Notes: generated from the sequence alone by a model not told the origin. DNA of 64,000 nt from an uncultured Acidobacteriota bacterium (GCA_963849525.1 CAWKHL010000004.1:48509-112508); one strand, 5' to 3'. Shown: positions 1-64,000, numbered from the stretch's first letter. Program-made: numbers and translations.

Positions 1-2
1 AC

Positions 3-692
3 CTGCCCCGCGGCTTCCACGAGGCCGTCAAGACGTTCCTCGACAAGTTTCCCGCCAAGATCGACGACTACGACAGGCTGCTCACGAAGAACGAGATCTG
101 GATCAAGCGCACGAAGGGCGTCGGCCGGTTGTCGCGCGAGGACACGATTGCGATGGGCGTCGTCGGCCCCATGGCGCGCGCCGTGGGAGTGCCGTACGAC
201 GTGCGCAAGGTGTTTCCGTACCTCAAGTACGACACGTTCGATTTCGCGGTGCCGACCCAGACCGACGGCGACGTGTACTCGCGCTACCTCGTCAAGCTGG
301 AGGAGATGCGCCAGAGCACGAAGATCTGTCAGCAGGCGCTCGCCCGGATCTCGCCGACGGGCGCGTTCGACTGCGGCGACTACCGCATCGTGCCGCCGCC
401 CAAAGACCGCGTGTACACCGAGATGGAAGCGCTGATTCAGCACTTCCTCATCTACTCGCAAGGGTTCAACGTGCCGGCGGGGGAGTGCTACGTGCCCATC
501 GAAGGGCCGCGCGGCGAGCACGGGTTCTACATCGTGTCGGACGGCTCGAACCGGCCCTGGCGCGTGAAGTGCCGGGCGCCGTCGTTCATCGCCTGCCAGG
601 CCCTGCCGAAGATGATCGAAGGCGGCTTGATCGCCGACGTCATCGCCGTCATCGGCTCGACGGACGTGGTCATGGGAGATGTGGACAGGTGA
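3..692 (+). CDS. nuoD: NADH-quinone oxidoreductase subunit D, C-terminal part (5' end outside window)
   Basis: Frame open from window edge (codons phased on nt 3) to TGA 690-692. Translation (..GVVGPMARAVGVPYDVRK..GDVYSRYLVKLEEMRQS..IEGPRGEHGFYIVSDG..) is the conserved 49-kDa subunit C-terminus. nuoE and nuoF follow. Confidence 0.92.
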   Translation: MPRGFHEAVKTFLDKFPAKIDDYDRLLTKNEIWIKRTKGVGRLSREDTIAMGVVGPMARAVGVPYDVRKVFPYLKYDTFDFAVPTQTDGDVYSRYLVKLEEMRQSTKICQQALARISPTGAFDCGDYRIVPPPKDRVYTEMEALIQHFLIYSQGFNVPAGECYVPIEGPRGEHGFYIVSDGSNRPWRVKCRAPSFIACQALPKMIEGGLIADVIAVIGSTDVVMGDVDR

Positions 693-699
693 GGGACAC

Positions 700-776
700 G
701 GTTCTGGGGTTCCGAGGTTCTGGGGTTCCGGGGTTCCGGTTCCACGGTTCCGAGGTTCCGGGGTTCCGGGGTTCTG
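700..776. repeat. Tandem 8-nt array, GGTTCYGG/GGGGTTCC family (~9 units)
   Basis: ggttctggggttccgaggttctggggttccggggttcc... directly after the nuoD stop. Same unit family as 35558-35679. Confidence 0.85.
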
Positions 777-784
777 CCTGACGC

Positions 785-977
785 GAGCGCCGCAGCGCGA
801 GCGAGCGGGGGTGGGGCCCCGCGAGTGAACAGATGGTCCGCGCGAGGAGAGCGAGTCTTCGAGCGCCGCAGCGCGGGCGAGCGGGGGTGGGGCCCCGCGA
901 GTGAACAGATGGTCCGCGCGAGGAGAGCGAGTCTTCGAGCGCCGCAGCGCGGGCGAGCGGGGGTGGGGCCCCGCGAG
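785..977. repeat. 76-bp tandem repeat, ~2.5 copies (GC-rich intergenic repeat family)
   Basis: Units start at 785, 861 and 937 and are nearly identical. Each carries the core GCGAGCGGGGGTGGGGCCCCGCGAG (801-825, 877-901, 953-977). Confidence 0.9.
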
Positions 978-1033
978 CGAGTAAAGGAAGATGACGCGTT
1001 GAATCGCGGGGGCGAAGCCCCCCGGAGTGAGAA

Positions 1034-1645
1034 ATGACCTTTCACCCAACGATGGACTACGGCCGCGGGCATCACCAGTCGGCCCGCGCACTGCCAGAAG
1101 AGGGGCCGGCGTTCGTCTACACGGCCGAGCGGCGCGCCGAGCTGGACGAGATGCTCGCCCGGTATCCGCCCGACCAACGGAAGTCGGCGATTCTGGCCGC
1201 GCTCTACCTGGTCCAGGCGCAGCAGGGGTATCTGACGCGCCGCGGGATGGCGCACGTCGCCGAGGTGATCGGCTGCACCGCCGCCGACGTTGAGGACGTC
1301 GCGTCGTTCTACACGATGTTCTACACGCGGCCGGTCGGCCGGTACGTGATCCAGGTCTGCCGGACGCTCTCGTGCGCGCTCGCCGGCGCCGAGCGGGTGA
1401 CCGAGGCGCTGTCGAACGTGCTGGGGGTCGCGCCGGGCGGCACCGACGCGGCCGGCGAGTTCACCCTCGTCGAGGTGGAATGTCTCGGTGCGTGCGACCG
1501 CGCGCCGGTCGTGGGCGTGAACGATTTGTGGCAGGAGTGCCAGCACGCCGATGGCGTCCGGGCCCTCGTCGACGACCTGCGCGCCCGAGGCGACGCGGCC
1601 GTGACCGGGTGCCACTTGAGAGTGGAAAGACGCGAGACAAGTTAG
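1034..1645 (+). CDS. nuoE: NADH-quinone oxidoreductase subunit E (24-kDa, 2Fe-2S)
   Basis: 203-aa ORF. ..YPPDQRKSAILAALYLVQ..CRTLSCALAG..VECLGACDRAPV.. matches the NuoE thioredoxin-like 2Fe-2S cysteine pattern. Lies between nuoD and nuoF. Exact start uncertain. Confidence 0.9.
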   Translation: MTFHPTMDYGRGHHQSARALPEEGPAFVYTAERRAELDEMLARYPPDQRKSAILAALYLVQAQQGYLTRRGMAHVAEVIGCTAADVEDVASFYTMFYTRPVGRYVIQVCRTLSCALAGAERVTEALSNVLGVAPGGTDAAGEFTLVEVECLGACDRAPVVGVNDLWQECQHADGVRALVDDLRARGDAAVTGCHLRVERRETS

Positions 1646-1700
1646 AAGTCAGAAGACAGAAGTTGGAACTTCTGACTTCTGGCTTCTAACTTCCGACTTC
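1641..1700. repeat. Inverted pair of AGAAGNN heptamer arrays (imperfect ~24-bp hairpin)
   Basis: gttagaagtcagaagacagaagtt and aacttctgacttctggcttctaac are reverse complements with 2 mismatches. The nuoE stop TAG (1643-1645) lies inside the first unit. Confidence 0.85.
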
Positions 1701-1711
1701 TTTCATCGCCA

Positions 1712-3260: not shown

Positions 3261-3265
3261 GTGCC

Positions 3266-4291: not shown

Positions 4292-4295
4292 AGAC

Positions 4296-4823: not shown

Positions 4824-4863
4824 GAAGTTCGAAGTTCGAAGTGTCGAAGTTCGAAGTGCTGAC

Positions 4864-5299: not shown

Positions 5300-7298
5300 A
5301 TGATGCTGCTGCTGATTCCCCTTTTCCCGTTTCTCGGATTTCTGGTCAACGCGACGATCGGCCGCCGCCTGTCGAAGAGCGTGTCGGGCGGAGTGGCCAC
5401 CGGCGCGATGGCGCTGTCGTTCGGCGTCGCATTCCGGGCCGTGATCGCGCTGCTCTCGGTCGAGCCCACGGGCGGCGTGCGGACGATCGACCAGGTCGTC
5501 TACACGTGGATCGCGTCGGGCCGGCTGAACGTGCCGCTGGCGTTCCATCTCGACCCGCTCGCGTCGGTGATGGTGCTGGTCGTCACCGGGATCGGCACGC
5601 TGATCCATCTGTATTCGACGGCCTACATGCACGAGGAGCGCGACGGCGAGTTCGCGCGCTATTTCTCGTACCTGAACCTCTTCGCGGCGTTCATGCTCGT
5701 GCTGGTGCTCGGCGCGAGCTTCCCGGTGATGTTCGTCGGCTGGGAGGGCGTCGGGCTGTGCTCGTACCTGCTGATCGGATTCTGGTTCACGAAGCAGAGC
5801 GCGGCTGACGCCGGCAAGAAGGCGTTCATCGTCAACCGCATCGGCGACTTCGGGTTCATCCTCGGGATGTTCTGGCTGTTCAAGCTCTTCGGCACGCTGG
5901 ACTTCCAGCAGGTGGCCACGCACGTGGCCGCCTTGCCGCCTGAGCTCGTCTTCGGCCCGCTGACGGGCATCACGCTGCTCCTGTTTCTCGGCGCGACGGG
6001 CAAGTCGGCGCAGCTGCCGTTGTACGTCTGGCTGCCGGACGCCATGGAGGGCCCGACGCCGGTGTCGGCCCTCATCCACGCCGCCACGATGGTGACGGCC
6101 GGCGTGTACATGATCGGCCGCAATGCCGTGCTGTTCAGCCACGCGCCGCAGACCCTCGAGGTCGTGGCCATTGTCGGGTGTCTGACGGCGTTCATGGCCG
6201 GGACGATCGGCCTCGTGCAGAACGACATCAAGCGCGTGCTGGCCTACTCGACCGTCTCGCAGCTGGGCTACATGTTCCTCGCGATGGGCGTGGGCGCGTT
6301 CGCCGGCGGGATCTTCCACCTCTACACGCACGCGTTCTTCAAGGCGCTCCTCTTCCTGGGATCGGGCGCGGTGATCCACGCGCTTCACGGCGAGCAGGAC
6401 ATCCGCAAGATGGGCGGGCTGCGCAAGGAACTGCCCGTCACGTTCTGGACGTTCCTCATCGCCACGCTGGCCATCACGGGCGTGCCCGGACTCGCCGGGT
6501 TCTTCTCGAAGGACGAGATCCTCGGCCGGACGTACGCGGGCGGGCACCACGTGCTGTGGGCCGTGGGCGTCATCACGGCGCTCCTCACGGGCGTCTACAT
6601 GTTCCGGCTGGTCTATCTCACGTTCTTCGGTCCGCCGTCGCCGGAACTGGCCGCGCTGCGCGCGGGCGCGGATCACGGGGCGCACGGCGGCCACACCCGC
6701 CACCTGCACGACGCGCCGCCGGCGATGGCGATTGCGCTCGTCGTGCTGGCGATTGGCTCGGTGCTCGCCGGCTACGCAGGTGTGCCGCGCGTGCTCGGCG
6801 GCGGCGAGCGCATCGACGCGTTCCTCGCGCCGAGCTTCCGCGCGCCCATCGTGACCACGGCCGGCGCGGAGGTGCTGCCGGCCGCGCCCGAGGAGGCGAG
6901 CGTCATGAGCACGTCGGGCGAAGTCGGGCTGATGACCGTCTCGACGGTGTTCGCGCTTGGCGGCATCGGCCTGGCGACGTTCTTGTTCCTCCGCCGCCGG
7001 TCGGCGGCCGCGGCGCTGGCCGAGCGGTTCAGCGGGCTGCACCGGCTCCTGCTCGGGAAGTATTTCGTTCGACGAGTTCTACAACGCGGCGATCGTGCAG
7101 CCCCTCAAACGCCTCTCGACGAGCGTGCTCTGGCGGGGCGTTCAACGTGGGGGGCATCGACGGGACGGTCAACGCGGTCGGCCTCGTCGTGCGCGGGTGG
7201 AGCGCCGTGCTGCGCCGGCTCCAGACGGGGTCGGTGCGGGCGTATGCGATGTCGCTGTTCATGGGCGTGGTCGTGATCCTGGGGTACTACTTGTGGCG

Positions 7299-11742: not shown

Positions 11743-13336
11743 ATGCGCGCATTACTGAGTGTCTCGAACAAGGCTGGATTGGTGCCCTTGGCGACCGCGT
11801 TGGCGGGCGGAGGATGGGAGTTGGTGTTGACCGGCGGAACCGCGCGGGCGCTCGAGCAGGCGGGGCTCGCAGGTGATCGGCATCTCGGACGTCACGGGCG
11901 TGCCGGAGATGATGGACGGCCGCGTGAAGACCCTTCACCCGAAGGTGCACGGCGGCATTCTGGCCCGGCGGCATCATGCGCCCGACCGTGCCGCGCTGGC
12001 CGAGCAGGCAATCGCGCCCATCGACCTCGTCGTCGTCAATCTCTATCCGTTCGCGGCTGCCGCGGCGCGCCCGGACATCGCGTTCGACGACCTGGTGGAG
12101 GAGATCGACATCGGCGGGCCAAGCCTGGTGCGCGCCGCCGCCAAGAACTTCCGTGACGTGCTCGTGGTCGTCGACCCGGCCGACTACGAAAGCGTGGTCG
12201 AGGCGCTCGCGGGCCCGGGCGGTCCGTCGCTCGCGTTTCGTTTCGAGCTCGCGCGGAAGGCGATTCGCCACACGGCCGACTACGACAAGATGATTGCCGC
12301 GACGCTCGACGAAGTGCAGGTGGATGAGGGGGCCGGGGCCTTCACGCGGAAGCGCGCGGGCGCGGGCGGCGAGCTGTTTCCGACGGTGTGGCAGCCGAAG
12401 CTCGAAAAGGTCCAGGACCTTCGGTACGGCGAGAATCCCCACCAGCCGGGCGCGTGGTACGCGGACGCCAAGGCCGGCTTCGGCGCCGCCAAAGTACACC
12501 AAGGCAAGGAGCTGTCCTTCAATAACCTGCTCGACCTCGACGCGGCGGCGCGCATCGCGCTCGAGTTCGAGGAGCCGGTCGCCGTCGTGATCAAGCACAC
12601 CAACCCGTGCGGCGTGGCGACCGGCGCGTCGCTCGCGGACGCTTACGTGCGCGCCCGCGACGCCGACGCGCTGTCGGCGTTCGGCAGCATCGTGGGGCTC
12701 AACCGGCCGCTCGACGAGGAGACCGCCCGTGCGATTGTGACGACGTTCGTCGAGGCCGTGCTCGCGCCCTCGCTCGAACCGCGCGAGGCGGTGCTGGCGA
12801 TTCTCGCGGCGAAGCCGAACCTGCGCGTCGTCACGGCGCGGTTCGACGCGCTGGCGAACGGCCGCGACGCCCGGTCGCTTCTCGGCGGCTGGCTGGTGCA
12901 GGGCCGGGACCACGCCGACGAGGCGCGCGCGCCGTGGCGCGCGGGTGAGGCGCCGCGCGTCGTGACCAAGCGCGCGCCGACGCCCGTCGAATGGCAGGCG
13001 CTCCGATTTGCGTGGCGCGTCTGCGCGCACGTGAAGTCGAACGCCGTCATCTTCACGTCCGCCGACCAGACGCTGGCCGTTGGCGCCGGCCAGATGAGCC
13101 GCGTGGATGCCGTCAACACGGCCGTGCTGAAAGCCGGCGGCGAGCGGCTGCGCGGCTCGGTGGCGGCCTCCGACGCCTTCTTCCCGTTTCGCGACGGGCT
13201 CGACGCCGTCGCGAAGGCCGGTGCCACCGCCGTCGTCCAGCCCGGCGGATCGAGAAACGACGCCGAGGTCATTGCCGCCGCCGATGAGCACGGCCTGGCG
13301 ATGGTCTTCACCGGCCGGAGGCATTTCAGACACTGA
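11743..13336 (+). pseudogene. purH: Bifunctional AICAR transformylase / IMP cyclohydrolase, one +1 frame break near codon 42
   Basis: MRALLSVSNKAGLVPLATALAGGGWELVLTGGTARALEQAGLA runs in the frame of ATG 11743. [30 protein letters not shown].. continues one frame on from 11873. One surplus nt lies at 11869-11872. Confidence 0.9.
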
Positions 13337-13652: not shown

Positions 13653-15306
13653 GTGAAGCGCTTTCTCAGTCCGCTCCTTGTCCTGCTCGCGCTGGCGATC
13701 CCGGTGTTCTTCGTGTGCCTGGGCGCGAATTCGATCTGGGACGCGAATGAGGCGTTCTATGTCGAGACGCCGCGGCAGATGATCCTGTCGGGCGACTACA
13801 TCAATCCGAGCTTCAACGGCGCGCCGCGGTTCAACAAGCCGGTGCTGAGCTACTGGATGGTCGCGGGACTGTACCGGCTGTTCGGGACGTCGGTGGTCGT
13901 CGAGCGGGTCGGCATCGCCCTCGGCGCGCTGGGCATCGTGCTCGCGGCCTTCCTCATCGGCCGCGCGCTGCGATCGACCCGCACGGGAGTGCTCGCGGCG
14001 CTGGTGGTCGCCACCGCGCCCCAGGTCGTCTGGTTCGCGCGGCGGATCTTCATCGACGTCTATCTCACGCTGTTCACCTCATTGGCGCTGGCCTGCTTCG
14101 TGCTCGCCGAACGGCACGCGGCCCATCGCCGGCGCTGGCTGGTCCTCATGTACGTCGCGCTCGGGCTCGGCGTGCTGACGAAGGGCCCGGTGGCCGTCGC
14201 GCTGCCGGGGCTGGCGTGCGTGCTGTGGCTCGCGTCGAGCCGCCGGCTCGGCGACCTCAAGCGCTTCATGCTCGTGCCCGGCGCGCTCGATTGTCCTGGC
14301 CATTGTGGTGCCCTGGTATGCGGCCGTCTATGCACAGCATGGATGGACGTATATCGTGAGCTTCTTCATAGGCGAGAACCTCGGACGCTATACGAACGCG
14401 ATGACGCCGGGCGGCCGCGGCGTGCTGTTCTACATACCGGTTCTTCTGGGCGGACTGTTTCCATGGGCACCGCTCGTGCTCGTGCCGCTGTGGCAGGTGG
14501 CGGCCGAGTGGTGGCGGCCGTCGGCCACTGGCGGCGGCCGCGCCGCGCTGCGCCGGCTGCTCTGGCTGTGGATCGTCGTGTTCGTCGCGGTGTTCTCGTT
14601 TTCGCGAACCAAGGAAGACCTCTACATCTTTCCCGTGGTGCCCGCGGTGGCCGCGCTCGTCGCCGACGCGCTCGTGGAGCGCGTGGAGGGCGGACGCGCG
14701 CGCGCGCTGGGCGCCGTCTTCATCGTGGTGTGCGGGCTGTGCCTCGTCGTCGCGCCGGCGGCATACTGGCTGTTCGGTCCGTCGGCCGGCTACTACGCGA
14801 TGGGCGGCGCCTCCACGTTCGCCGTGGTCCTGGGAACGACCGGGCTCGCGGCCGGCCTGTTCTGGCTGCGCGGTCGCCCTGCGACGGGGATCGCGGCGCT
14901 TGGCGCGGGGTTCGTCGTGCTGAACTACCTGTTCGTGGCGCAGGTGCTGCCCCAGGCCGAGCGGTCAAAGCCCGTGCCGCCCCTGGCGCGGACGCTTGCG
15001 GCCGACGCGGCGCCGGATGCACGTGTCGGCTCGTTCAACATGGGGCTCCAGAGCTTTGTGTACTACTCGGGCCGGTCCGCGATCGCGGAGATCGACTCGC
15101 TCGACGAGGCGCGCACGTTCTTCGCCGGCGACCGCGAAGCATGGGCGATCATGGGCGGCGACGAGTGGACCGAGGTTCAACGCGCCGTCCCGGGAACCTG
15201 CGTCGCCGCCGAGCGCCATCTCTCGATCTTCGACGCGAAGCTCGGCGACATCATCACCCGCACCCCGCCGCCGGCGGTGCTGCTCGTGAAGAACAGGTGC
15301 CATTGA
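13653..15306 (+). pseudogene. Glycosyltransferase family 39 (ArnT/PMT-like GT-C), one +1 frame break
   Basis: N-terminal part: ..ANSIWDANEAFYVETPRQMILSGDYINPSFNGAPRFNKPVLSYWMVAG..LKRFMLVPGAL in the frame of 13653. It continues IVLAIVVPWYAAVYAQHGW..LLVKNRCH* in the frame of track ORF 14305..15306. Junction near 14289. Confidence 0.85.
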
Positions 15307-17769: not shown

Positions 17770-18966
17770 GTCGCCCTACCCGCCGCGGCGTCCGGCGCCG
17801 CCGCGCGAACGACGCTCACCGCGTAGGGAAGCGTGATGATGCCGAGAAAGAGCACGAGAAACTCGGAGTCGCCGAAGTTGTATTCAAACAGGCCCGCGGC
17901 CAGCATGGCGACGAGCGCGGCGGCCCCCGCACCGGCCACGGCTTTGTGGGGACCGCGCAGCAGCTGCCGGAATAGATCGCGACCGGCGACGACCACGAAC
18001 CACAGGAACGCCGCGAGCGCCGGCAGCCCGCGCTCGGCCGCGATCTGCACGGGCACGTTGTGCAGATGCGCCCGCGTTTGCGGGCCGACCGACCCGGCCG
18101 GGTCGACCGCGTCGGCCGTGCGATAGAGCGGGTACATCCGCGGCACCATGTTGAGGCCGACGCCGAACCACGGATGGTCGTGGATCATCGCCGCGCCCGA
18201 CTCGAGCATGGCGATCCGATCCTGGTTGGTCGGGTTGTGCAGGTCGAACACCGACAGGGCGCGACGCTGGGCGATCGACGGCGCGGCAAGCAGGAACAGC
18301 ACGGCGGCGACCGGCAGGACGATCGTGAGCTTGGCGTTGCGGATCGCCAGGAGGACGCCAATCGCCACCATCGTGCCGACCCAGGCGTTGCGCGACTCGG
18401 TCACCACCAGCGCGACGAGCAGCGCCGGGACGGCGATGGCGGGCCAGATCCACTGTTTGCCGACCTGAATCAGCCGCGCCGCCGCGGCGCAGACGACGAG
18501 CATCAGCACGCCGGAATACGTCATGTAGTGTCCGAGCGTGCCCCGCGGGCGGTTGTTCATCTGGTCGAAGCCCAGCGCGGCGTACTCGACGATGCCGATG
18601 AGCGCGCCCGCGGCCCCGAGCGCGATGATGACGTCGAGCGTCCGGGTGGCGCGGTCGCCGCGCAGCAGCCGCGAGGTCATCGGCACGATGGCGAACAGCA
18701 GCATCTGGCGCGACCGGATGAAGCTGGCGGCCGGATCGACCGAGAACGCGCAGCTGACGCAGCGTCAGGCCCGCGTAGACCATCAACGGCAGGAAGAACG
18801 CGGGCACGTCCGGCCGGCGTCCCTCGCGGATCGCGATCCACAGCCACAGCAGGCCGGGAATGACCAGCAGGTTCGCGCCGAAGATCGTGAACTGGACGAT
18901 GCCGAGGCAGGCCGCGAGCGCGACGTACCCGGCCAGCTCGATTCGCGACGTGCTCGGTGCGTTCAT
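17766..18966 (-). pseudogene. O-antigen ligase-like (Wzy_C) membrane protein, one +1 frame break
   Basis: N-terminus MNAPSTSRIELAGYVALAACLGIVQF..MVYAGLTL runs in the frame starting at 18966. It continues SCAFSVDPAASFIRSRQMLLFAIVPM.. in the frame of track ORF 17766..18704. Junction near 18756-18759. Confidence 0.8.
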
Positions 18967-23808: not shown

Positions 23809-23883
23809 TGGGGCGTGGCCAAGCGGTAAGGCGCGGGACTTTGGATCCCGTATTCGAAGGTTCGAATCCTTCCGCCCCAACCA
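23809..23883 (+). tRNA. tRNA-Gln (anticodon TTG)
   Basis: tggggcgtggccaagcggtaaggcgcgggacTTTGGatcccgt..gaaggttcgaatccttccgccccaACCA. Acceptor tggggcg/cgcccca, T-arm gaagg/ccttc, loop cTTTGGa gives anticodon TTG. CCA is encoded. Confidence 0.9.
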
Positions 23884-30177: not shown

Positions 30178-30756
30178 AAGTTAGAAGACAGAAGTTGGAA
30201 GTGACAGAAAGAAGTAAGGCGTTCGGGCGGAGTCACTCGACCGGCGTGCGCAGCTTGCGGACGGTGGTCGTGAGGATGGCCGTGAGTTGGTTGCACTCGT
30301 CGAGGACCGCTTCGAGTTGCGCCGCGACCCGAGGCTGGTCCGAGGCGATCAGACGCAGCCAGTAGTGACACTCCCGGCTCTCCCGTAGGGCGATGGTGTA
30401 CCGTGCGGCGAGATCGCGTCGCGAGTAGGCCGACTGCGCCTCCGCAATGTTGGCGCCGATCGACGTACCCGACCGAAGCATCTGTTCGATGAGATGACGC
30501 GGCACATTGGTTTGCCGGTTTGCCGCGCGACCTCGCGTGAGAGCGCCAGAAGCCGCTCGGCAAGGCGAAAGCTTCGCGTCGGAAGGGGCTCTGCTATTGT
30601 CATGCCTTGATGAATTGTCGGAGAGATTGGGGCACGCCGGGAGCCCATCGGGCGTTTCATGTACATGAAGTGCTGCCCGCCCGGAGGTTGGGGAACTTGG
30701 CGCTTGCGTCTTGGCACCTCCGGCTTCTAACTTCTGTCTTCTAACTTCTAACTTCC
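30169..30756. mobile_element. Candidate IVS-like or MITE-like cassette: 34-nt inverted repeats bracketing a four-helix-bundle gene
   Basis: IR-L 30169-30202 ggaagttagaagttagaagacagaagttggaagt. The reverse complement of IR-R (30723-30756) is ggaagttagaagttagaagacagaagttagaagc, identical at 32 of 34 positions. The 520 nt between them holds the antisense gene 30233-30603. No transposase present. Confidence 0.4.
30233..30603 (-). pseudogene. Four-helix-bundle protein (23S rRNA intervening-sequence protein family), frame broken once (-1 or +2)
   Basis: N-terminus MTIAEPLPTRSFRLAERLLALSREVAR.. runs in the frame of ATG 30603. The C-terminus ..VPRHLIEQMLRSGTSIGANIAEAQSAYSRRDLAARYTIALRESRECHYWLRLI.. 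is in another frame. Junction around 30505-30530, at the direct repeat caaaccggcaaacc. Confidence 0.7.
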
Positions 30757-39330: not shown

Positions 39331-39407
39331 GCTGGCGTAGCTCAGTCCGGTAGAGCAGCTGATTTGTAATCAGCCGGTCGGGGGTTCAAATCCCTTCGCC
39401 AGCTCCA
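39331..39407 (+). tRNA. tRNA-Thr (anticodon TGT)
   Basis: gctggcgtagctcagtccggtagagcagctgatTTGTAAtcagc..ggttcaaatccc..cgccagcTCCA. Acceptor gctggcg/cgccagc. The anticodon loop tTTGTaa gives TGT. Confidence 0.9.
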
Positions 39408-39655
39408 AGTTCCGGGCGGTCATCCAGAACGCGCATCACTCTGAAGGAACCCCGGCGTTCTACGTGAGATCGCGGAATCACCGCATGGCTCTGAGCCACG
39501 CCGCTGCCGCAGGCGACACAAGAGGCGGGCGATGAGTCGTGAGGCGAGGCGCGTCTCCAGGCGCGGGCCGGACGAGAGGACTTTGCGGGCAACGCCCGGC
39601 GCGGGGCGCCGGCGAGCCAGACACGGAGTGACCGAGCGCGATTGATGATTGATCA

Positions 39656-39742
39656 GGCGAGGTAGCGAAGCGGTCAAACGCAGCAGACTGTAAATCTGTC
39701 GCCCTAGCGGCTTCGAAGGTTCGAATCCTTCCCTCGCCACCA
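39656..39742 (+). tRNA. tRNA-Tyr (anticodon GTA), long variable arm
   Basis: ggcgaggtagcgaagcggtcaaacgcagcagactGTAaatctgt + variable arm cgccctagcggc + ttcgaaggttcgaatccttccctcgccACCA. Confidence 0.9.
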
Positions 39743-39895
39743 TTCGACTCGGCCTCGCCGGCCTCGCGCATGGCGGGCCGAGTCGAGTGGCGGTGGCAGG
39801 CCGAGTCGAAGGGCGGAACGGCGAGCGAGCGAGTCGCGCTCGGGCCTGTCCGCCGAAGTTGAGCGAGGGCATCGGGGCAGCGGAGCGAAACGAAG

Positions 39896-39970
39896 GCGGG
39901 AGTAACTCAGTGGTAGAGTCACAGCCTTCCAAGCTGTTGGTCGCGGGTTCGATCCCCGTCTCCCGCTCCA
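39896..39970 (+). tRNA. tRNA-Gly (anticodon TCC)
   Basis: gcgggagtaactcagtggtagagtcacagccTTCCAAgctgt..gcgggttcgatccccgtctcccgcTCCA. Confidence 0.9.
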
Positions 39971-40112
39971 GTTTTCGCCGAACGCGCGCGGCGCTCGCGG
40001 CGTCGGCTGGCGGGCCAGTGGGTCGCGCGCTGAACGCATCGCGTGGGTTCGGCAGCCGAGGGCTAGGCCGACTTGTGGGCCGAAGCGGCGAGCGACGCGA
40101 GCGCTCGCGAAG

Positions 40113-40188
<76 letters not shown>

Positions 40189-40274
40189 GAAGTGTCCGCG
40201 GCGGTCGCGGCGCGGGAGACGACGGACGTAGACGAGAGCAACTCAAGTACGACTTTTAACGGAGACCGAGAGCA

Positions 40275-41474
40275 ATGGCGAAGGAGAAGTTTGATCGTTC
40301 GAAGCCGCACGTGAACGTTGGCACGATTGGCCACATTGACCATGGGAAGACGACGCTGACCGCGGCGTTGACCAAGGTGGCGGCCGACAAAGGGTGGGCC
40401 AAGTTCGTGTCGTACGACGAAGTGGCCAAGGCCTCGGAGTCGCAGGGGCGCCGTGACGAATCGAAGGTCATGACGATTGCGACGAGTCACGTCGAGTACT
40501 CGACCGCGAAGCGTCATTACGCGCACGTCGACTGCCCGGGCCACGCCGACTACATCAAGAACATGATCACCGGCGCGGCGCAGATGGACGGCGCGATTCT
40601 GGTGGTCAGCGCCGTCGACGGCCCGATGCCGCAGACGCGCGAGCACGTCCTGCTCGCCTATCAGGTCAACGTGCCGTATCTGGTGGTCGCGCTGAACAAG
40701 GTCGACGCGGTCGACGATCCGGAGTTGCTGGACCTCGTCGAACTCGAGGTGCGGGACCTTCTGAAGACCTACAAGTTCCCCGGCGACGATGTGCCGGTGG
40801 TGCGCGTGTCGGCGCTCAAGGCCCTGCAGGGCGACCCGGAGGGCGTCGAGTCGGTGCTGAAGCTGATGGAAGCGCTCGACGCGTACATCCCCATGCCGCA
40901 GCGCGACGTGGACAAGCCGTTCCTGATGCCGATCGAGGACGTGTTCTCGATTTCCGGCCGCGGCACGGTCGTCACCGGTCGCGTCGAGCGCGGCAAGGTC
41001 AAGGTGGGCGAGGAGATCGAGATCATCGGGTTCAAGCCGACCGAGAAGAAGGTCGTCACCGGCGTCGAGATGTTCCGCAAGCTGCTCGACGAGGGCGTGG
41101 CCGGCGACAACATCGGCGTGCTGCTCCGCGGCGTCGAGAAGGACGATGTCGAGCGCGGCCAGGTGCTGGCCAAGCCCGGCTCGATCACGCCGCACACGAA
41201 GTTCAAGGCCGAGGTGTACATCCTGTCGAAGGACGAGGGGGGGCGCCACACGCCGTTCTTCAACGGGTATCGTCCGCAGTTCTACATCCGCACGACCGAC
41301 GTGACCGGGACCCTCAATCTTCCGGAAGGCGTGGAGATGGTGATGCCCGGGGACAACACGACCATCACCGGCGAGTTGATGGCGCCCGTCGCGATCGAGA
41401 AGGGCAGCCGGTTCGCCATTCGTGAAGGCGGACGGACGGTCGGCGCCGGAACGATTACGGAAATCATCGAATAG
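40275..41474 (+). CDS. tuf: Elongation factor Tu
   Basis: 399 aa. [44 protein letters not shown].. Intact. Confidence 0.98.
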
Positions 41475-41494
41475 GCATTCGGCATCGGGCACGA

Positions 41495-41530
41495 GGCACT
41501 AGGCCGGACGTGGTCTAGTGCCCAGTGCCT
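41495..41530. repeat. CCTAGTG-type heptamer hairpin after tuf
   Basis: ggcactag (41495-41502) pairs with ctagtgcc (41515-41522), followed by cagtgcctgg. Same unit as the 3-copy array at 43899-43925. Confidence 0.55.
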
Positions 41531-41558
41531 GGCGCCCGGCGCCTGATGGGATTCACTT

Positions 41559-41708
41559 ATGCGCGAAATCGTCACCCTGGCGTGCCTCGAGTGCAAACGG
41601 CGGAATTACAGCACGACCAAGAACCGCCGTAAGAGCTCGGAGCGCCTGGAGTTCAACAAGTACTGCCGCGCGTGCCGCAAGCACACGTCGCACAAGGAAA
41701 GTAAGTAA
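41559..41708 (+). CDS. rpmG: 50S ribosomal protein L33
   Basis: 49-aa ORF absent from the ORF track. [49 protein letters not shown]. Canonical position before tRNA-Trp, secE and nusG. Confidence 0.9.
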
Positions 41709-41722
41709 CGTCGGATCCGTAC

Positions 41723-41798
41723 AGGCCAGTAGCTCAATTGGCAGAGCATCGGTCTCCAAAACCGAGGGCTGGGGGTTCGATTCCCTCCTGGCCTGCCA
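41723..41798 (+). tRNA. tRNA-Trp (anticodon CCA)
   Basis: aggccagtagctcaattggcagagcatcggtCTCCAAAaccga..gggggttcgattccctcctggcctGCCA. Confidence 0.9.
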
Positions 41799-42754: not shown

Positions 42755-42793
42755 GGAAGTTTGAAGTTGGAAGCCAGAAGTTAGAAGTTCAAG

Positions 42794-43410
42794 GCGCCGC
42801 GCGAAGCGCGTAAGCGAGCGGGAGTCGGGCGCCGCGAGCCTTGAGAAGAGACGCCCGCGGACGCGAAGCGCCGCGGCCAGCCCAAGGGGCGCCGCGCGAA
42901 GCGCGTAAGCGAGTGGGAGTCGGGCGCCGCGAGTATTGAGAAGGGACGCCCGCGGACGCGAAGCGCCGCGGCCAGCCCAAGGGGCGCCGCGCGAAGCGCG
43001 TAAGCGAGCGGGAGTCGGGCGCCGCGAGTATTGAGAAGAGACGCCCGCGGACGCGAAGCGCCGCGGCCAGCCCAAGGGGCGCCGCGCGAAGCGCGTAAGC
43101 GAGTGGGAGTCGGGCGCCGCGAGTATTGAGAAGAGACGCCCGCGGACGCGAAGCGCCGCGGCCAGCCCAAGGGGCGCCGCGCGAAGCGCGTAAGCGAGTG
43201 GGAGTCGGGCGCCGCGAGCCTTGAGAAGAAACGCCCGCGGACGCGAAGCGCCGCGGCCAGCCCAAGGGGCGCCGCGCGAAGCGCGTAAGCGAGTGGGAGC
43301 CGGGCGCCGCGAGTATTGAGAAGGGACGCCCGCGGACGCGAAGCGCCGCGGCCAGCCCAAGGGGCGCCGCGCGAAGCGCGTAAGCGAGTGGGGGTGGGGC
43401 CCCGCGAGCA
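42794..43410. repeat. 95-bp tandem repeat, ~6.5 copies (GC-rich intergenic repeat family)
   Basis: Unit gcgccgcgcgaagcgcgtaagcgagYgggagtcgggcgccgcgagNNttgagaagRgacgcccgcggacgcgaagcgccgcggccagcccaaggg. Units start at 42794, 42889, 42984, 43079, 43174, 43269 and 43364 (the last partial). Confidence 0.95.
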
Positions 43411-43421
43411 GGTAAAAGAAG

Positions 43422-44692: not shown

Positions 44693-44836
44693 CGAGGCCC
44701 AGGGGCCTCCGGCCCTGGGCCGCGCCGACAGCCGCGGGCGCGAGGCGCCGCGGCAAGCCCGTCAGGGCGTCGCGCGAAGCGCGGGAGCGAGCGGGGGTGG
44801 GGCCCCGCGAGCCCTGAGAAGAGTTGGCAAAGAGAC

Positions 44837-46142: not shown

Positions 46143-50464
<4,322 letters not shown>

Positions 50465-50484
50465 GCGCTGACGCTGGAGCTGGA

Positions 50485-50588
50485 CAAGTTTTGAAGTGAG
50501 AGGCCAGAGGTTGGAAGTCGGAGGGGCGGCCGGTCGAGTGCTGGCCGGGCGCGCCCTTCGAACTTCTGGCTTCTAACTTCGAAGTTGA
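50485..50588. repeat. Inverted AGAAGNN-type arrays (imperfect ~30-bp hairpin) in the rpoB-rpoC spacer
   Basis: caagttttgaagtgagaggccagaggttggaag versus the reverse complement of cttcgaacttctggcttctaacttcgaagttg. Most mismatches are G-U compatible. Confidence 0.75.
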
Positions 50589-50604
50589 CGAGGACCACCA
50601 ACAG

Positions 50605-55507
<4,903 letters not shown>

Positions 55508-56686: not shown

Positions 56687-56732
56687 CGCGGAGGCGCACG
56701 GTGCGACGTAGTCAGTCCAGGCCGGCAACACG

Positions 56733-59243: not shown

Positions 59244-61391
59244 CTAGCGCGCGGGCGCGGCCGGCGGCAGCCGTTGGAGCCCGCTGCGGGCGAGCGCATT
59301 GGCCGGGTCGATCTCGAGCGCGCGCTGGAATTCCTGGCGCGCACCGTCGAACCTGCCCGCCGTCGCGAGCACCTCGCCCATGAGCTCGTGGGCGGCCGCG
59401 TCGTTTGGCGCGATCGTTTCGGCCTCCTGGGCTTGGGCGCCGGCCTGTTCGACGTCGCCGGTCGAGAGCAGGGCCCGGCCCAGGTTGCGTCGATAGGCCG
59501 GGTTCTGCGGCACGATCTCCTCGGCGTGACCGAAGGCGGCGACGGCATCCGATCCGTTGCCGGTGCCGACGAGCGCGATCCCCAGCCCCGTCCACGCGCC
59601 GTCATCGTCCGGGTGCGCCGCCAGGTAGCGTTGGTAGTGGGGCACCGCGGCCGCGAGCGTGCCCTGCCGCGCGAGCGCGGTCGCCAGCAGGCCGTGGACG
59701 ACGGCGTCGTCAGGCGCCGTGTTGAGAATCGTCTGGTACTCGTCGGCGGCCCGCGACCAGGCTTGTGTCGCCTCGAAGGCCTGCGCCATGGTGATGCGCG
59801 CGTCGCGAAGCCACGGGCCAGGCGACTGCTGGCGAATGAGTTGCTGCAGCAGCGGAATCGCCTGGTCCGCCTCGTGCTGGGCAATGAGCTCCAGACAGAG
59901 ATTGAGTACCGCCGGGGGTAGTCTCGCGCAGCGACTCTCAAATGCTCGGTTCCCGCGACCTCCTGCTTCTCGGCGAGGAGCGCGGTGCCCAGCATGTTCT
60001 CGGCGATCGCGCTCGGCCAGCGCGCGGCCGTCACGCGCGCCATCGTCAGGTACCGACGCGTACTCGCGGCCGCGCAGGACGGTGCGCGTTGCGAGGGCGC
60101 CCGCCGCCGCGAGGAGGGCGCAGGCGGCGATGGCCGTCCACAAAGGCGTCGTCGGACGCGTGAGGTCCGCCCGTCCGTCTCCCGTTATCCGCACCCATGC
60201 GAGAACAAGGACCACGACCAGCAGCACGATGAAGCCCGCGAGCGGCAGATACATACGGCTCTCGGCGCCAACATGCGCCGGCCACGGGATGAGCGTGGAC
60301 GATGGCACGAGCGTGAGGAGGATCCAGGCGGCCGGGAAGCCGAATCGCGGGCGTCGCACCGCCAGGAGGACCGCCGCGGCGGCCCCCACCGCGAGGCACG
60401 CGGCGTACGGCCAGACCGTCGCGAACGCCACCTGGCGGGCCCAGCCGTAATCGAGCACGAGTCCGCGCGGCCAGATGGTGAGCCACAGATAGTGCGGCAG
60501 GATCACCGCCTGGTTCAGCAGGTAGGTCCATGGAGAGATGTGCGGCATCTCGAACCCGCCCGCGGTGGTCTGCGCCGCGAAGGCCGGAATCGTGAGCAGC
60601 ACCAGCCAGGTGGCCGCCAGGCCGGCATAGAGGCGCCAGCGGCTCCGAATGGCGGCGCGCGGCGAGTCGAAGAGAAACGCGCGGTCGTACAGAACGACCA
60701 TCAGGGGCGCCGTAACCATGGCCGGGTCCGAAGCCATGCCGCACGCGGACACGACGACCGCGCCAATCTGCCAGAGCGCGGGGCGGCGCGATTGCGGCGC
60801 TCGCGCGCACGCGTACATCACCCCCAGATAGCAGAGCGCCATCAATGCCATCGGCCGCTCGGTGACGGAGTTGACCACGACGCTGTTCAACGGGTGGACG
60901 ACCCACAACAGCGAGGCGGCCAGCGCGATGTCGGTCGATCGCGGCGCGAGCCGCGCGTCGATCGCGGGCCACTCCAGGGTGCGCCGGATCAGACCGAACA
61001 GCAGGAGCGCACAGGCGAGGTGGAGCGCGATGTCGAGGGCGTGGTAGCCGCCGACCCCCAGGCCGCCGAGTGCATAGTTGACAGCCAGCGACACATTGGC
61101 CAGCGGGTGGCCGGCCAGCGGCGAGCCCGGGCGGCTGGCGAACATGGCGCCGACGTTTCCGAGGTCGCGGATCTGCGCGTTCTGGACGACCGTATCGAGG
61201 TCGTCGAAAATGAACGGCCGCCCGATCGTGCTGCTGTAGGTCAGCGCGCCCGCGATGACGATCGCGGCAAGGCGCCACCAGAGTCCTCGCCATGGGGTGG
61301 AGGCGGGCGGCTCGCTTCCCTGGACGCGGCGACCGGTGCGACGGGGGGAGGGGCGACTGCGGCGGGGGACGGCACGCGTGGACGCCGGCAT
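59244..61391 (-). pseudogene. TMTC/PMT-like GT-C membrane glycosyltransferase with C-terminal TPR domain; +1 then -1 (or +2) frame breaks 140 nt apart
   Basis: N-terminus ..RPFIFDDLDTVVQNAQI.. (DD motif of TMTC/PMT type) with about 11 TM segments. Between 60053 and about 59915 the sensible peptide YLTMARVTAARWPSAIAENMLGTALLAEKQEVAGTEHLRVAARDYPR is in the neighbouring frame. TPR units follow. Confidence 0.75.
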
Positions 61392-61634
61392 GGGAACAGC
61401 CGATGATACGTCCTCGAGGTGGCGAGGGCACGCAAACGGCAGGGGTGCGGTAAACTAACACCCCTCGACACGCGTAGGATGATGCAGGATGGGTTCCGGC
61501 GCTCCGGGAGGCCGGGATCGCTCAAGACTCGATTACCGTATTCCGGTATCACTCACCTCCCAAACAACCATTCTCGAACTGTGTGCAATTTCGCATGGTC
61601 CACCTGCGTTACCAAGATATAGGATTCGCGCGCT

Positions 61635-64000
61635 ATGACTGACGACGTCAAGACCGGTACGGGCGGCCTCGATACTTCACGGCAGTATCTCCCGCTGCTA
61701 TTGCTGCTGTTCGTTGGCAGCGGATGCGCGGCCCTCATCTACGAGATCGTCTGGCTGCAGTTGCTCCAGCTGGTCATCGGCGTGTCGCCGGTCTCGCTCG
61801 GCGTGCTGCTTGGCACGTTCATGGGGGGCATGTGCCTGGGCAGCTTGCTGCTGCCGCGGCTCGTGTCGGGTCGGCACCATCCGCTTCGCGTCTACGCCTG
61901 GCTCGAGCTGGCCACGGGCGCGTGTGGGCTGCTGATCCTCTTCGGGATGCCGTTCGTCACCCTGGTCTACACGACCTGGGGCGGATCGAGCTTCAGCCTG
62001 TTCCTCCGCTGTCTGCTGGCCAGCCTGTGTCTGCTGCCGCCGACGCTCTGCATGGGCGCCACGCTGCCCGCCATGTCACGCTGGGTCAAGACGACGCCCG
62101 CGGGCGTCTCGTGGCTCGGGTTCTTCTACGGCGGCAACATCTTCGGCGCCGTGGCCGGCAGTCTGGTCGCGGGGTTCTACTTGCTGCGGGTCTTCGACGT
62201 GTCGGTGGCGACCTACGCGGCGCTGGGACTCAACGTGCTGGTCGCGGCGGTTGCGCTCGGCATTGCCAAAGCGACGTCGCACGCGAGGGAGGCCGAGGCG
62301 CCGGCGTCGGCCGTGCGGTCGCCAGGTGCCGCGGCCGTCTACCTGACCATCGCGCTCTCGGGATTGACGGCGCTCGCGGCTGAAGTGATCTGGACGCGGA
62401 TCCTGTCGCTCGTGTTCGGGGCGACCGTGTACACCTTCTCGCTCATCCTCGCCGTGTTCCTCGTCGGCCTCGGCATCGGCAGCAGCATTGGCGCGATGAT
62501 GTCCCGCGAGCTCAAGCGGCCGGGCGTGGCGCTCGGGTGGTGTCAGATGCTGCTCTGCGCCGCGATGGCGTGGGCGGCCTACATGCTCACCCAGTCGCTG
62601 CCGTACTGGCCCATCAATCCGTCGATCTCCACCGATCCGTGGTTCAACTTCCAGCTCGACATCGTGCGCTGTCTCTGGGTCGTGCTGCCGGCTGCCATCC
62701 TGTGGGGCGCGAGTTTTCCGCTCGCGCTCGCGGCCGTGGCGGCCGAAGGGCAGGACCCGGCCCGCCTCGTGGGCGGCGTCTACGCCGCGAACACGGTCGG
62801 CGCGATCGCCGGCTCGCTCGTGGCCAGTCTGCTGCTCGTCTGGTGGATCGGCAGCCAGCACGCCCAGCAAGTGCTCATCGTCGTCTCGGCGCTGAGCGGC
62901 CTGCTGATACTGGCGCCGGCCGTGGCGGGCGGCGAGAAGGCGCACGCGAAGGTCCAGTGGGCGGGGGTCGCCGCCCTGGTCGTCGCCACGGGCGGCGCGG
63001 GCCTGCTCGCGCGGGGCGTGCAGCCGGTGCCCGGGCTCTTGATCGCGTACGGCCGGTACTCGGCGACGTGGGTGGGCCAGAGCAAGATCATCTATTCGGG
63101 TGAAGGGATGAACGCGTCGGTCGCCGTCTCGGAACTGCCGAATGGCGTGCGCAACTACCACAACGCCGGCAAGGTGCAGGCGTCGAGCGAGCCGCAGGAC
63201 ATGCGGCTCCAGCGGATGCTGGGCCACGCGACGACGCTCCTGTCCGACCACCCCGATAACATCGTGGTCATCGGCTGCGGCGCCGGCGTGACGGCCGGGG
63301 CCGTGTCGATCGATCCGCGATTGAAGCACGAGACGATCGCCGAGATCGAGCGGCTTGTGCCCTGGACGGTCAACAAGTACTTCGGTCCCTGGAACTTCAA
63401 CGTCATCGAGAACCCGAAGGTCGAGGTGCATATCGACGACGCCCGGCATTTCATTCTGACGACGCGTGAACAGTTCGACGCGCTGACGTCCGACCCGTTG
63501 GACCCCTGGGTCAAAGGCGCGGCCGCGCTCTACACGCAGGAGTTCTTTCGGTCGGTCAAGGATCACCTGACCTCGGGCGGTCTCGTCACGCTCTTCGTTC
63601 AGCTCTACGAGAGCAACCCGGCAGCCGTGAAGAGCGAGATCGCAACCTTCTTCAGCGTGTTTCCCCACGGCTTCATCCTCGCCAATACGCAGAACGGCCA
63701 GGGCTACGACCTCGTCCTGGTTGGCCCGAAGGAGGAGCGGCGCTTCAACGTCGACCTGATCGAACAGCGGCTGAAGAGCCCCGAATACGCCGCGGTCGCG
63801 CACTCGCTGAGCGAGGTCGGCATCTATTCGGCGACGGACCTCTTCGCGAACTTCGCCGGGCAGCCGTCCGACATGGGCGACTACCTCAAGGACGCGATGA
63901 TCAACCACGACGACAACCTGCGCCTGCAGTACCTGGCCGGGATGGGCTTGAACCTGTACGAGAGCGACTCGATCTATCGCGATATCGTCGTCCATGCGAA
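61635..64000 (+). CDS. Fused polytopic membrane domain + spermidine-synthase-like (class I MTase fold) protein, 3' end outside window
   Basis: Not in the ORF track because it has no stop in the window. I translated ATG 61635 through 64000 without meeting a stop. MTDDVKTG..LLLLLFVGSGCAALIYEIVWLQLL..VVIGCGAGVTAGA..DALTSDPLDPWVKGAAALYTQEFF.. Confidence 0.8.
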   Translation, partial: MTDDVKTGTGGLDTSRQYLPLLLLLFVGSGCAALIYEIVWLQLLQLVIGVSPVSLGVLLGTFMGGMCLGSLLLPRLVSGRHHPLRVYAWLELATGACGLLILFGMPFVTLVYTTWGGSSFSLFLRCLLASLCLLPPTLCMGATLPAMSRWVKTTPAGVSWLGFFYGGNIFGAVAGSLVAGFYLLRVFDVSVATYAALGLNVLVAAVALGIAKATSHAREAEAPASAVRSPGAAAVYLTIALSGLTALAAEVIWTRILSLVFGATVYTFSLILAVFLVGLGIGSSIGAMMSRELKRPGVALGWCQMLLCAAMAWAAYMLTQSLPYWPINPSISTDPWFNFQLDIVRCLWVVLPAAILWGASFPLALAAVAAEGQDPARLVGGVYAANTVGAIAGSLVASLLLVWWIGSQHAQQVLIVVSALSGLLILAPAVAGGEKAHAKVQWAGVAALVVATGGAGLLARGVQPVPGLLIAYGRYSATWVGQSKIIYSGEGMNASVAVSELPNGVRNYHNAGKVQASSEPQDMRLQRMLGHATTLLSDHPDNIVVIGCGAGVTAGAVSIDPRLKHETIAEIERLVPWTVNKYFGPWNFNVIENPKVEVHIDDARHFILTTREQFDALTSDPLDPWVKGAAALYTQEFFRSVKDHLTSGGLVTLFVQLYESNPAAVKSEIATFFSVFPHGFILANTQNGQGYDLVLVGPKEERRFNVDLIEQRLKSPEYAAVAHSLSEVGIYSATDLFANFAGQPSDMGDYLKDAMINHDDNLRLQYLAGMGLNLYESDSIYRDIVVHA

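Follow-up and report, generated by a model that had tools for sequence, protein, structure and literature searches.

Programmed +1 ribosomal frameshifting is known in bacteria from the prfB type, and frequent +1 sites are found in Euplotes. At established sites, a defined shift motif is in most cases accompanied by a stop codon or a rare codon in the 0 frame, and these sites are conserved in relatives. The stretch of DNA analyzed here (the window; 64,000 nt, 67% GC, Vicinamibacterales-like) resembles these systems in that the breaks of its reading frames are in the +1 direction and the downstream frame of the affected genes is conserved and intact. However, the window contains no such motif, the 0 frame is open at most of the rpoC sites, and the sites are absent in relatives.

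Single-base indels that fragment otherwise intact genes, as in the window, are described for Nanopore-only assemblies and MAGs (Sereika et al. 2022, PMC9262707; PMC12313526), in which their occurrence depends on coverage and polishing. The errors in that literature are mainly located in homopolymers, whereas those of the window lie outside homopolymers, are almost all insertions and occur at positions that are variable among relatives. Additionally, Flye merges strains that are about 97-99% identical into a single consensus (PMC8302730, Strainberry), and the additional bases of the window reproduce two alleles at variable positions, in line with what a collapsed mixture would give. That study, however, covers SNVs and the lower identity of a collapsed consensus rather than tandem alleles, and the second strain considered here is deduced from relatives. 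In the literature on Flye and Medaka consensus, no description of both alleles being retained was found, and homopolymer indels are emphasized instead.

Frame breaks in the window

The window contains 25 frame breaks in genes of both strands, and 22 of them are one-base insertions. Two routes were used in their detection: tblastn of the intact RpoB and RpoC of relatives against the window, combined with DNA alignments, and a homology-free Viterbi segmentation based on codon usage. The segmentation yields 21 frame-switch events that represent 22 of the 25 breaks, with those at 51,291 and 51,322 fused into one switch, whereas the purH break and the break near 30,515 are not caught by it and were found via Pfam and the reading of frames. 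Together, these approaches recover the inventory of the preliminary description, which had listed 25 breaks with 22 of the +1 type. In the other genes of the window, a search for additional breaks found none, and the Pfam domains run end to end in a single frame.

Seventeen of the 25 breaks lie inside 5,921 nt (48,788-54,708), where 2.3 are expected (Poisson P = 5e-10). In a scan simulation, none of 200,000 uniform runs places more than 12 breaks in any interval of equal width (P<5e-6), and the variance-to-mean ratio of the break counts in 4-kb bins is 5.1; both results agree with the earlier claim that the clustering exceeds uniform random error. The claim that the directionality exceeds symmetric indel error is likewise borne out, as 22 of 25 breaks share one direction (two-sided binomial P = 1.6e-4) on both strands. 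Two close pairs (7,070/7,140 and 59,915/60,050) are also present outside the cluster (P=0.007).

Integrity of the affected genes

Removal of one base per site gives an RpoB of 1439 aa and an RpoC of 1402 aa with zero internal stops. The corrected proteins are 93-94% identical to the products of the uninterrupted genes of the closest public relatives, and the corrected RpoC aligns with full-length public RpoC proteins at 100% coverage and 91-94% identity. Both genes are uninterrupted in the three closest contigs (L081-L083) and in L003, L005 and L006, and the best 120 RpoC matches are all full length and uninterrupted. The frame-break sites of the window were sought in the rpoB and rpoC genes of the relatives and are absent in every one. 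A search for an independently assembled, nearly identical (>97%) sequence from this population found none, the top RpoC match being 94% identical at the amino acid level. The NuoL, PurH, PMT, Wzy_C and IVP domains run unbroken once the sites are corrected.

Nucleotide identity to the relatives is flat over the cluster and equal to the identity among the relatives themselves, and a check of rpoB and rpoC for signs of pseudogene decay found neither stops nor relaxed conservation. Past the shift, the old frame continues without a stop codon for 133-551 nt at 11 of the 13 rpoC sites, and there is therefore no stop or hungry-codon trigger at these sites. In the organism itself, rpoB, rpoC and the other broken genes are almost certainly uninterrupted.

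The cluster in rpoB and rpoC

The cluster (48,786-54,709, plus strand) spans the 3' third of rpoB and the whole of rpoC and comprises 16 one-base insertions and 1 one-base deletion, with four breaks in rpoB (48,788; 49,930; ~50,256; 50,307) and 13 in rpoC (51,291 to 54,708). All features described in this section are on the plus strand.

In rpoB, the insertion ACGC (48,786-48,789) corresponds to ACG in L082 and ACC in L083. The one-base deletion GCG GC- GAG (49,929-49,931) removes a third codon position that is variable in relatives (ACG/ACC). The insertion in CCGGGCC (50,254-50,260) can be read as ACC/ACG or as GGG/GGC, and both pairs are present in the relatives. At the insertion CAGC (50,305-50,308), the relatives have Gln CAG or His CAT, and a reading as a C run is also possible.

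In the first half of the rpoC series, the insertion ACGC (51,289-51,292) is placed by DNA alignments, and GTCG (51,320-51,323) corresponds to GTC in L083 and GTG in L081. The insertion CAAC (51,690-51,693) contains an additional A in a conserved His codon and has no two-allele support. ATGCA (52,303-52,307) can be read as ATG/ATC followed by ATG, and CTCG (52,559-52,562) corresponds to CTG in L082 and L083 and to CTC in L081. At TCGC (53,088-53,091), all relatives have TCG. A further insertion, GTCG (53,182-53,185), lies where the relatives have GTG and GTC; the existence of this break had been reported correctly, but its earlier placement near 53,193 gives way to 53,184, which is favored by the DNA alignment with closer relatives.

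Downstream, GTGCA (53,483-53,487) again coincides with GTG and GTC in the relatives, and CACG (53,661-53,664) combines CAC (L082) with an overlapping ACG (L083). Alternative readings are possible for the insertions in GGTCGA (53,872-53,877; GGT/GGC, or CAG/GAG), in GTGCCCGG (54,128-54,135; GTG/GTC or CCC/CCG) and in CGTCGAAT (54,476-54,483; GTC/GCG, or GAT/AAT, with Asp or Asn in the relatives). The last insertion, GACG (54,706-54,709), contains ACG as in L081, preceded by an additional G.

Breaks outside the cluster

On the plus strand, nuoL carries two insertions. The first, GTTC (7,067-7,070), can be read as GTT/GTC (Val) plus one base, and alignment with NuoL homologues moves from frame 2 to frame 3 at 7,071-7,078; the second, GGCG (7,137-7,140), can be read as GGC/GGG (Gly) plus one base, and the alignment moves from frame 3 to frame 1 at 7,136-7,156. 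The NuoL relatives (JGI metagenomes; 63-68% identical) confirm both breaks and are too distant for an allele-level comparison. The purH insertion GCAG (11,869-11,872, plus strand; GCA/GCG, Ala, plus one base) splits the MGS domain over two frames, the first covering profile positions 1-32 and the second 30-93. The insertion CTCG (14,286-14,289, plus strand; CTC/CTG, Leu, plus one base) interrupts a GT39/PMT-family gene, as indicated by the Viterbi segmentation and Pfam. On the minus strand, CTGC (18,759-18,762; CTG/CTC, Leu, plus one base) interrupts the Wzy_C (O-antigen-ligase-like) gene, and GTAC (60,050-60,053; GTA/GTC, Val, plus one base) interrupts a TPR/TMTC-like gene. All six hand-placed insertions outside the cluster can thus be interpreted as doublets of two different bases at a third codon position that give synonymous codons.

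The three remaining breaks are of other kinds: an 8-nt tandem duplication, a single-base deletion in a C5 run and another such deletion at the variable third position in rpoB. The duplication is an exact repeat of GGCAAACC (two copies; 30,509-30,524, minus strand) in the 23S-rRNA-IVP four-helix-bundle gene, which adds 8 nt and is equivalent to a -1 shift. When one copy is removed, a 120-aa protein with a single-stretch match to PF05635 positions 8-105 is obtained. The break itself had been noted near 30,515, but the accompanying reading, that one nucleotide must be added or two removed, does not describe an exact duplication. The break noted near 59,915 is present as well: it is a one-base deletion in the TPR/TMTC-like gene (59,914-59,918, minus strand), located in a C5 run of the coding strand (G5 on the plus strand) that is probably C6.

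Nature of the additional bases

The insertions in rpoB and rpoC were compared with the codons of the relatives at the aligned positions, and a site was counted as a two-allele site when two equally good single-base deletions restore the exact codons of different relatives. This signature is found at 8 of the 16 insertion sites (tolerance 0) or 9 of 16 (tolerance 3), that is, at 50-56% of the sites versus 8.5-12.5% in a null of 1500 random or duplicating insertions (P = 1e-5 to 1.3e-4). In looser and stricter variants of the test, P lies between 2e-4 and 0.01. The version used is the third, as one earlier variant was too permissive (null 35-40%) and another placed sites arbitrarily within plus or minus one codon. 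Approximately 7 of the 16 sites, such as CAAC at 51,690, have no two-allele match to the three relatives, and these could be plain insertion errors.

The rate of third-position synonymous doublets exceeds the null of random insertions only weakly (P 0.02-0.5); a test for such doublets is weakly informative because random insertions pass it 36-56% of the time. Errors in homopolymer length were also tested at the rpoB and rpoC insertions, of which 6 of 16 are compatible versus 95% under a duplication model, and 16 of the 22 insertion sites of the window have a run length of 1. A homopolymer error fits only the deletion in the C5 run at 59,914-59,918 and possibly also the deletion at 49,930. Among the k-mers and shift motifs shared around the 22 insertion sites, none is enriched after multiple-test correction.

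Frame breaks in other assemblies

Among the MFD Nanopore (Flye+Medaka) MAG loci of related taxa, produced by the MFD-LR MAG pipeline described in PMC12313526, 12 of 13 homology-verified breaks are +1. The verified breaks number six in L010, five in L074 with two further ones in rplL, and one in L046, and the genes affected in these loci are tuf, nusG, rplA, rplL, rpoB and rpoC. L048 and L067, contigs of hybrid or older long-read origin, have -1 breaks, and no homology-verified break was found in the short-read contigs of related loci. The codon-usage HMM shows the same technology pattern on the related loci; its candidates in L031, L041 and L012 are without homology verification and were left out of the verified counts. 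An apparent rpoB break in L002, a short-read MAG, is a run of 353 N and no frameshift.

Origin of the frame breaks

The frame breaks are almost certainly errors of the assembly consensus and not biology. With a probability of about 0.78, they arose in a long-read metagenome assembly of mixed strains, whose consensus wrote the two variants of a strain difference next to each other. The preliminary description had proposed an insertion-biased consensus over a poorly covered or strain-mixed region. The strain-mixed part of this proposal is supported by the two-allele signature at 8-9 of 16 sites, and the same bias, with breaks crowded into the same operon, is present in Nanopore MAG loci and absent from short-read loci. 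The platform and pipeline behind the window are most likely of the long-read (Nanopore) type, polished without strain separation, and the codons of the relatives point to a strain mixture at rpoB and rpoC, with a putative second strain deduced from them.

In such an assembly, where two co-occurring close strains differ by a substitution, the consensus may sometimes keep both bases side by side, such that GTC and GTG would give GTCG, and CAC and ACG would give CACG. Each tandem allele would add one nucleotide and shift the frame by +1, and the errors would be almost all insertions, since the sequence can become longer but never shorter when two alleles are merged. The second haplotype may have been similar enough for co-assembly or cross-mapping only over the long conserved 3' part of rpoB and rpoC, and the scattered breaks elsewhere, some of them tightly paired, may have arisen in the same way wherever the strains vary locally. 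As a separate observation, the cluster begins partway through rpoB and leaves tuf and the window's genes for ribosomal proteins unaffected, which was counted against strain merging.

Low-coverage consensus errors in a single strain, in which a drop in depth over rpoB-rpoC leaves a random, insertion-biased residue, are an unlikely origin, yet one that draws on several observations. The +1 bias and packed breaks are also seen in other Nanopore MAG loci, low-coverage MAGs have a reduced coding density according to the MFD-LR authors (PMC12313526), and R10.4 assemblies are reported to be near-finished only at about 40x. Additionally, the sites that lack a two-allele match (~7 of 16) and the doublet rate weakly above the random null are compatible with random insertion. 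However, random insertion produces the codons of both relatives far less often than is observed (8.5-12.5% versus 50-56%), the cluster is not accompanied by a surplus of substitutions or deletions, and the residual Nanopore errors in the published record are mainly homopolymer indels, which the sites in the window are not.

A systematic base-calling error at a DNA-methylation motif was raised in the preliminary description as a possible cause of motif-linked insertions, and is very unlikely. In the motif test near the sites, no k-mer survives multiple-test correction, and TCGA is borderline: it lies at most 5 nt from 8 of the 22 insertion sites versus 8% of background positions (uncorrected P=2e-4), and the enrichment is lost on correction (Bonferroni 0.06). 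Several of the insertions themselves create the motif (GTCGAT, CTCGAT, GGTCGAG), but a C/G third-position doublet between common codons naturally yields T-C/G-A contexts. Furthermore, nearly all of the 672 TCGA in the window, 106 of them within the cluster, are unaffected, and the clustering is left unexplained by a motif.

It is similarly improbable that a gap over rpoBC in a short-read scaffold was bridged by raw or lightly corrected long reads during hybrid assembly. Such gap filling would account for a sharply bounded, error-rich segment in an otherwise clean contig, and the hybrid OPERA-MS locus L048 has breaks as well; however, the hybrid and older long-read loci carry -1 rather than +1 breaks, eight more breaks lie outside the segment, and a patch of raw reads would bring many substitutions and deletions, whereas the identity is unchanged and 16 of the 17 breaks are insertions.

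The strict direction of the breaks in otherwise perfectly conserved genes has the look of recoding rather than decay, but real biology is extremely improbable, whether the population genuinely carries the insertions in its DNA and decodes the 4 rpoB and 13 rpoC breaks by repeated, motif-free +1 recoding (programmed ribosomal frameshifting or RNA-level correction), given that there is no common slippery or stall motif, the old frame remains open at most rpoC sites, homopolymers for transcriptional slippage are absent, no relative has any of the sites, the additional base mirrors the alternative alleles of relatives in a way that biology does not predict, and unrelated Nanopore MAGs show identical patterns of error (tuf, nusG, rplA), or the genes are decaying pseudogenes, which is ruled out by 13 breaks in a single-copy essential gene with zero stops and 94% identity.

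Consequences for public assemblies

The relevance of these breaks is modest for data quality and databases, and there is none as biology. Several public Nanopore MAGs, GTDB species representatives among them, have insertion-type breaks in universal markers (rpoB, rpoC, tuf, nusG, rplA, rplL). Gene calls are fragmented by such breaks, which can also be mistaken for recoding and can bias estimates of completeness, phylogenies of marker genes and counts of pseudogenes. The tandem-allele errors suggest a candidate rule, simple in form, for the diagnosis and repair of strain-mixed long-read consensus sequences. Lookalike sites are present in two of the Nanopore loci, namely CTAG (CTA/CTG), GCAG (GCA/GCG) and GGGC in L010 and GCCG in L046.

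Frame breaks in the window

A tblastn comparison of the window with the intact RpoB and RpoC proteins of relatives reveals four frame hops in rpoB and 12 visible hops in rpoC, one of them double, and the DNA alignments used for placement show three insertions and one deletion in rpoB and 13 single-base insertions in rpoC. A codon-usage Viterbi segmentation, which uses no homology and is independent of the first route, recovers the rpoB and rpoC switches and additionally finds switches in nuoL (two), a PMT gene, a Wzy_C gene and a TPR gene (two); in each case, the coding signal quits the frame well before the stop codon of that frame. Both nuoL breaks are confirmed by NuoL homologues. In the Pfam annotation, the MGS domain of purH is divided over two frames, and the PF05635 match of the four-helix gene lacks the first 29 profile positions. 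The Pfam domains of the remaining genes in the window are complete in a single frame, and the segmentation adds no further candidates. The total is 25 breaks on both strands, 22 of which are one-base insertions; homology, homology-free segmentation and Pfam thereby confirm the count and direction reported in the preliminary description.

Two individual sites require refinement. The disruption near 30,515 is present but is not the 1-nt event previously described; it is an exact 8-nt tandem duplication, GGCAAACC GGCAAACC, on the coding (minus) strand at 30,509-30,524, within a small 23S-rRNA-intervening-sequence-protein (PF05635) gene. Deletion of one GGCAAACC copy yields a 120-aa protein in which PF05635 positions 8-105 are matched in one stretch. 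This duplication is another type of event than the single-base breaks; it may be genuine variation in the population or an independent assembly error. The break placed near 53,193 also exists, but closer relatives favour position 53,184 (GTCG). The deletion near 59,915 lies within a C5 run, and that at 49,930 takes out a third codon position that is variable among relatives.

The reported clustering and +1 bias of the breaks hold statistically, as does the close pairing outside the cluster. Seventeen of the 25 breaks lie within 5,921 nt, compared with 2.3 expected (Poisson P = 5e-10), and no window of this length exceeds 12 breaks in 200,000 uniform simulations. Across 4-kb bins, the variance is 5.1 times the mean. 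The insertion direction (22/25) has P = 1.6e-4, and the two tight pairs beyond the cluster have P = 0.007.

Nature of the inserted bases

Indels that fragment genes are well documented in Nanopore assemblies and are usually ascribed to homopolymers (PMC9262707), whereas the insertions in the window are not homopolymer-length errors. Shortening a run resolves 6 of the 16 rpoB/rpoC sites, versus 95% in simulations in which the insertions duplicate a neighbour, and at 16 of 22 sites the inserted base is not part of a longer run (run length 1). By eye, most sites resemble a codon plus one base, with the third position doubled by unlike bases that give synonymous codons (GTC+G, CTC+G, ACG+C, GCA+G). 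This description also fits 36-56% of simulated random insertions (P between 0.02 and 0.5), which makes the doublet statistic weak by itself.

Alignment with the closest relatives, three contigs from JGI metagenomes (L081-L083), reveals that at many sites the two frame-restoring options are exactly the two codons found there in different relatives: ACGC at 48,786 (ACG in L082, ACC in L083), GTCG at 51,320 (GTC in L083, GTG in L081), CTCG at 52,559 (CTG, CTC), GTCG at 53,182 (GTG, GTC), CACG at 53,661 (CAC in L082, ACG in L083) and CCGGGCC at 50,254-60 (ACC/ACG or GGG/GGC). In a two-allele test, all single-base deletions within 15 nt of a site were ranked by how well the local peptide then matched relatives, and the best were retained; a site was positive if two retained deletions differed in one codon and both codons were present in relatives at the aligned position. 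Positives number 8/16 (tolerance 0) or 9/16 (tolerance 3), against 8.5-12.5% for a null in which 1500 insertions, random or duplicating a neighbour, were placed in the corrected genes (P = 1e-5 to 1.3e-4); with looser and stricter variants, P ranges from 2e-4 to 0.01. The insertions thus tend to favour positions that vary between close lineages, and the added base copies the alternative variant, a tendency that would be expected from two co-assembled haplotypes if both substitution alleles were retained. Such retention would directly account for the insertion bias; at 49,930, the consensus may have failed in the opposite way and dropped both alleles, leaving a deletion.

Breaks in related assemblies

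Eighty related loci around rpoB served as a natural control. In the codon-usage segmentation, breaks occur almost solely in loci of the Microflora Danica (MFD) long-read catalogue (records MFD...bin..., contig_N), are nearly all +1, and are packed together in L074 and L031. In a homology check that queried with peptides of the 71 clean loci and accepted a break when two or more queries supported it, L010 has six +1 breaks, L074 has five and L046 has one. A separate comparison adds two +1 breaks in L074 rplL, and the genes affected are tuf, nusG, rplA, rplL, rpoB and rpoC. The MFD sites resemble those of the window (CTAG, GCAG and GGGC in L010, GCCG in L046). In contrast to this class, the MEGAHIT and SPAdes contigs among the 80 loci have no breaks, and -1 breaks are found in L048 (a hybrid OPERA-MS contig) and L067 (a Canu-type contig). 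For the MFD MAGs, assembly of Nanopore reads with Flye --meta --nano-hq was followed by a single Medaka round, and the authors report reduced coding density in MAGs of lower coverage (PMC12313526). The pattern is thus a recurring property of one assembly class.

The +1 breaks affect tuf (two), nusG, rplA, rplL (two) and rpoB in L074 (CAWIWS010000021.1), rplA, rpoB and rpoC in L010 (CAWIPD010000016.1), and rpoB (one) in L046 (CAWCWB010000005.1). These three are public Nanopore MAGs and GTDB species representatives with broken universal marker genes. The codon-usage HMM also gives +1 candidates in the MFD Nanopore loci L031 (2,900-5,769, five within 2.9 kb), L041 (5,586) and L012 (2,300). An apparent rpoB break in the short-read MAG UBA823 (L002) was rejected as a run of 353 N at 5,932-6,284, which mimics a break in tblastn.

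Origin of the breaks

The feature is not real biology, and we assign a probability of approximately 0.95 to the breaks being artefacts. The two-allele test and the MFD loci support the earlier interpretation of an insertion-biased consensus over a poorly covered or strain-mixed region, and strain merging is a likely mechanism for most of the breaks. A long-read consensus oblivious to strains would combine two co-occurring close strains, with their substitutions sometimes written as two adjacent bases. Flye is documented to collapse close strains into one consensus (PMC8302730); our literature search did not find tandem retention of both alleles described as a cause of +1 bias, a detail that may have practical use. 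The cluster probably marks a stretch where the second haplotype would be similar enough for merging or cross-mapping. It begins mid-rpoB, with tuf and the ribosomal protein genes spared in the window, and stops where rpoC ends, a point at which the closest relatives already vary in gene order.

Plain low-coverage insertion errors, with no strain mixture, are possible for the approximately seven sites that have no two-allele match, but they leave the two-allele enrichment unexplained. A methylation motif, as previously suggested, is not supported: TCGA is borderline (8/22 sites, Bonferroni 0.06, with 672 TCGA sites in the window), but no k-mer around the sites is enriched after correction. Neither programmed +1 frameshifting nor correction at the RNA level is supported: the sites carry no motif and are conserved in no relative compared, and at 11 of 13 rpoC sites the original frame runs on for 133-551 nt after the shift before a stop codon.

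Removal of one base per insertion and addition of one at 49,930 restores RpoB (1439 aa) and RpoC (1402 aa) with no internal stop, and the corrected RpoC is 91-94% identical to full-length public proteins over 100% of its length. Both genes are uninterrupted in L081-L083 (rpoB, 1437-1441 aa; rpoC, 1401-1403 aa). Nucleotide identity to these contigs (0.81-0.94 per 600 nt) parallels that among the contigs themselves and is unchanged at entry into the break-rich segment. The flat profile therefore indicates no substitution excess in the segment, where the insertions alone are abnormal, which contradicts a raw-read gap fill; pseudogene decay is contradicted as well, since stop codons are absent and conservation is normal, and the genes are not decayed.

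Gene content and a repeat array

The window has a GC content of 67%, and its rpoB is nearest in protein comparison to those of Vicinamibacterales (Acidobacteriota) MAGs (88% aa for L001, 82% for L074 and L004). Gene order by Pfam annotation is ordinary. A first block contains nuoD-N, a cold-shock gene, purH, PMT-family glycosyltransferases, a sugar kinase, the Wzy_C gene, a heptosyltransferase and TPR proteins; a second contains prs, rplY, pth, dnaB, alr, the 23S-rRNA-IVP gene, radA, ispDF, gltX and a tRNA cluster; and a third contains tuf, secE, nusG, rplKAJL, rpoB and rpoC, followed by accessory genes. The tRNA cluster (Thr-Tyr-Gly-Thr), tuf and tRNA-Trp follow one another at 39,331-41,798, with tRNA-Gln apart at 23,809; in relatives, rpmG (L33) lies between tuf and secE.

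The nusG-rplK gap spans 664 nt and is filled by a tandem array (42,790-43,420) of approximately 6.5 copies of a 95-nt GC-rich unit that includes GGCGCCGCGCGAAGCGCGTAAGCGAGYGGGAGTCGGGCGCCGCGAG, whereas the spacing is merely 4-100 nt in the closest relatives L082 and L083. The array has no Rfam match. An extra copy of the unit core lies between rplA and rplJ (44,762-44,823), and the array may derive from an element of REP/MITE type or from expansion of a repeat.
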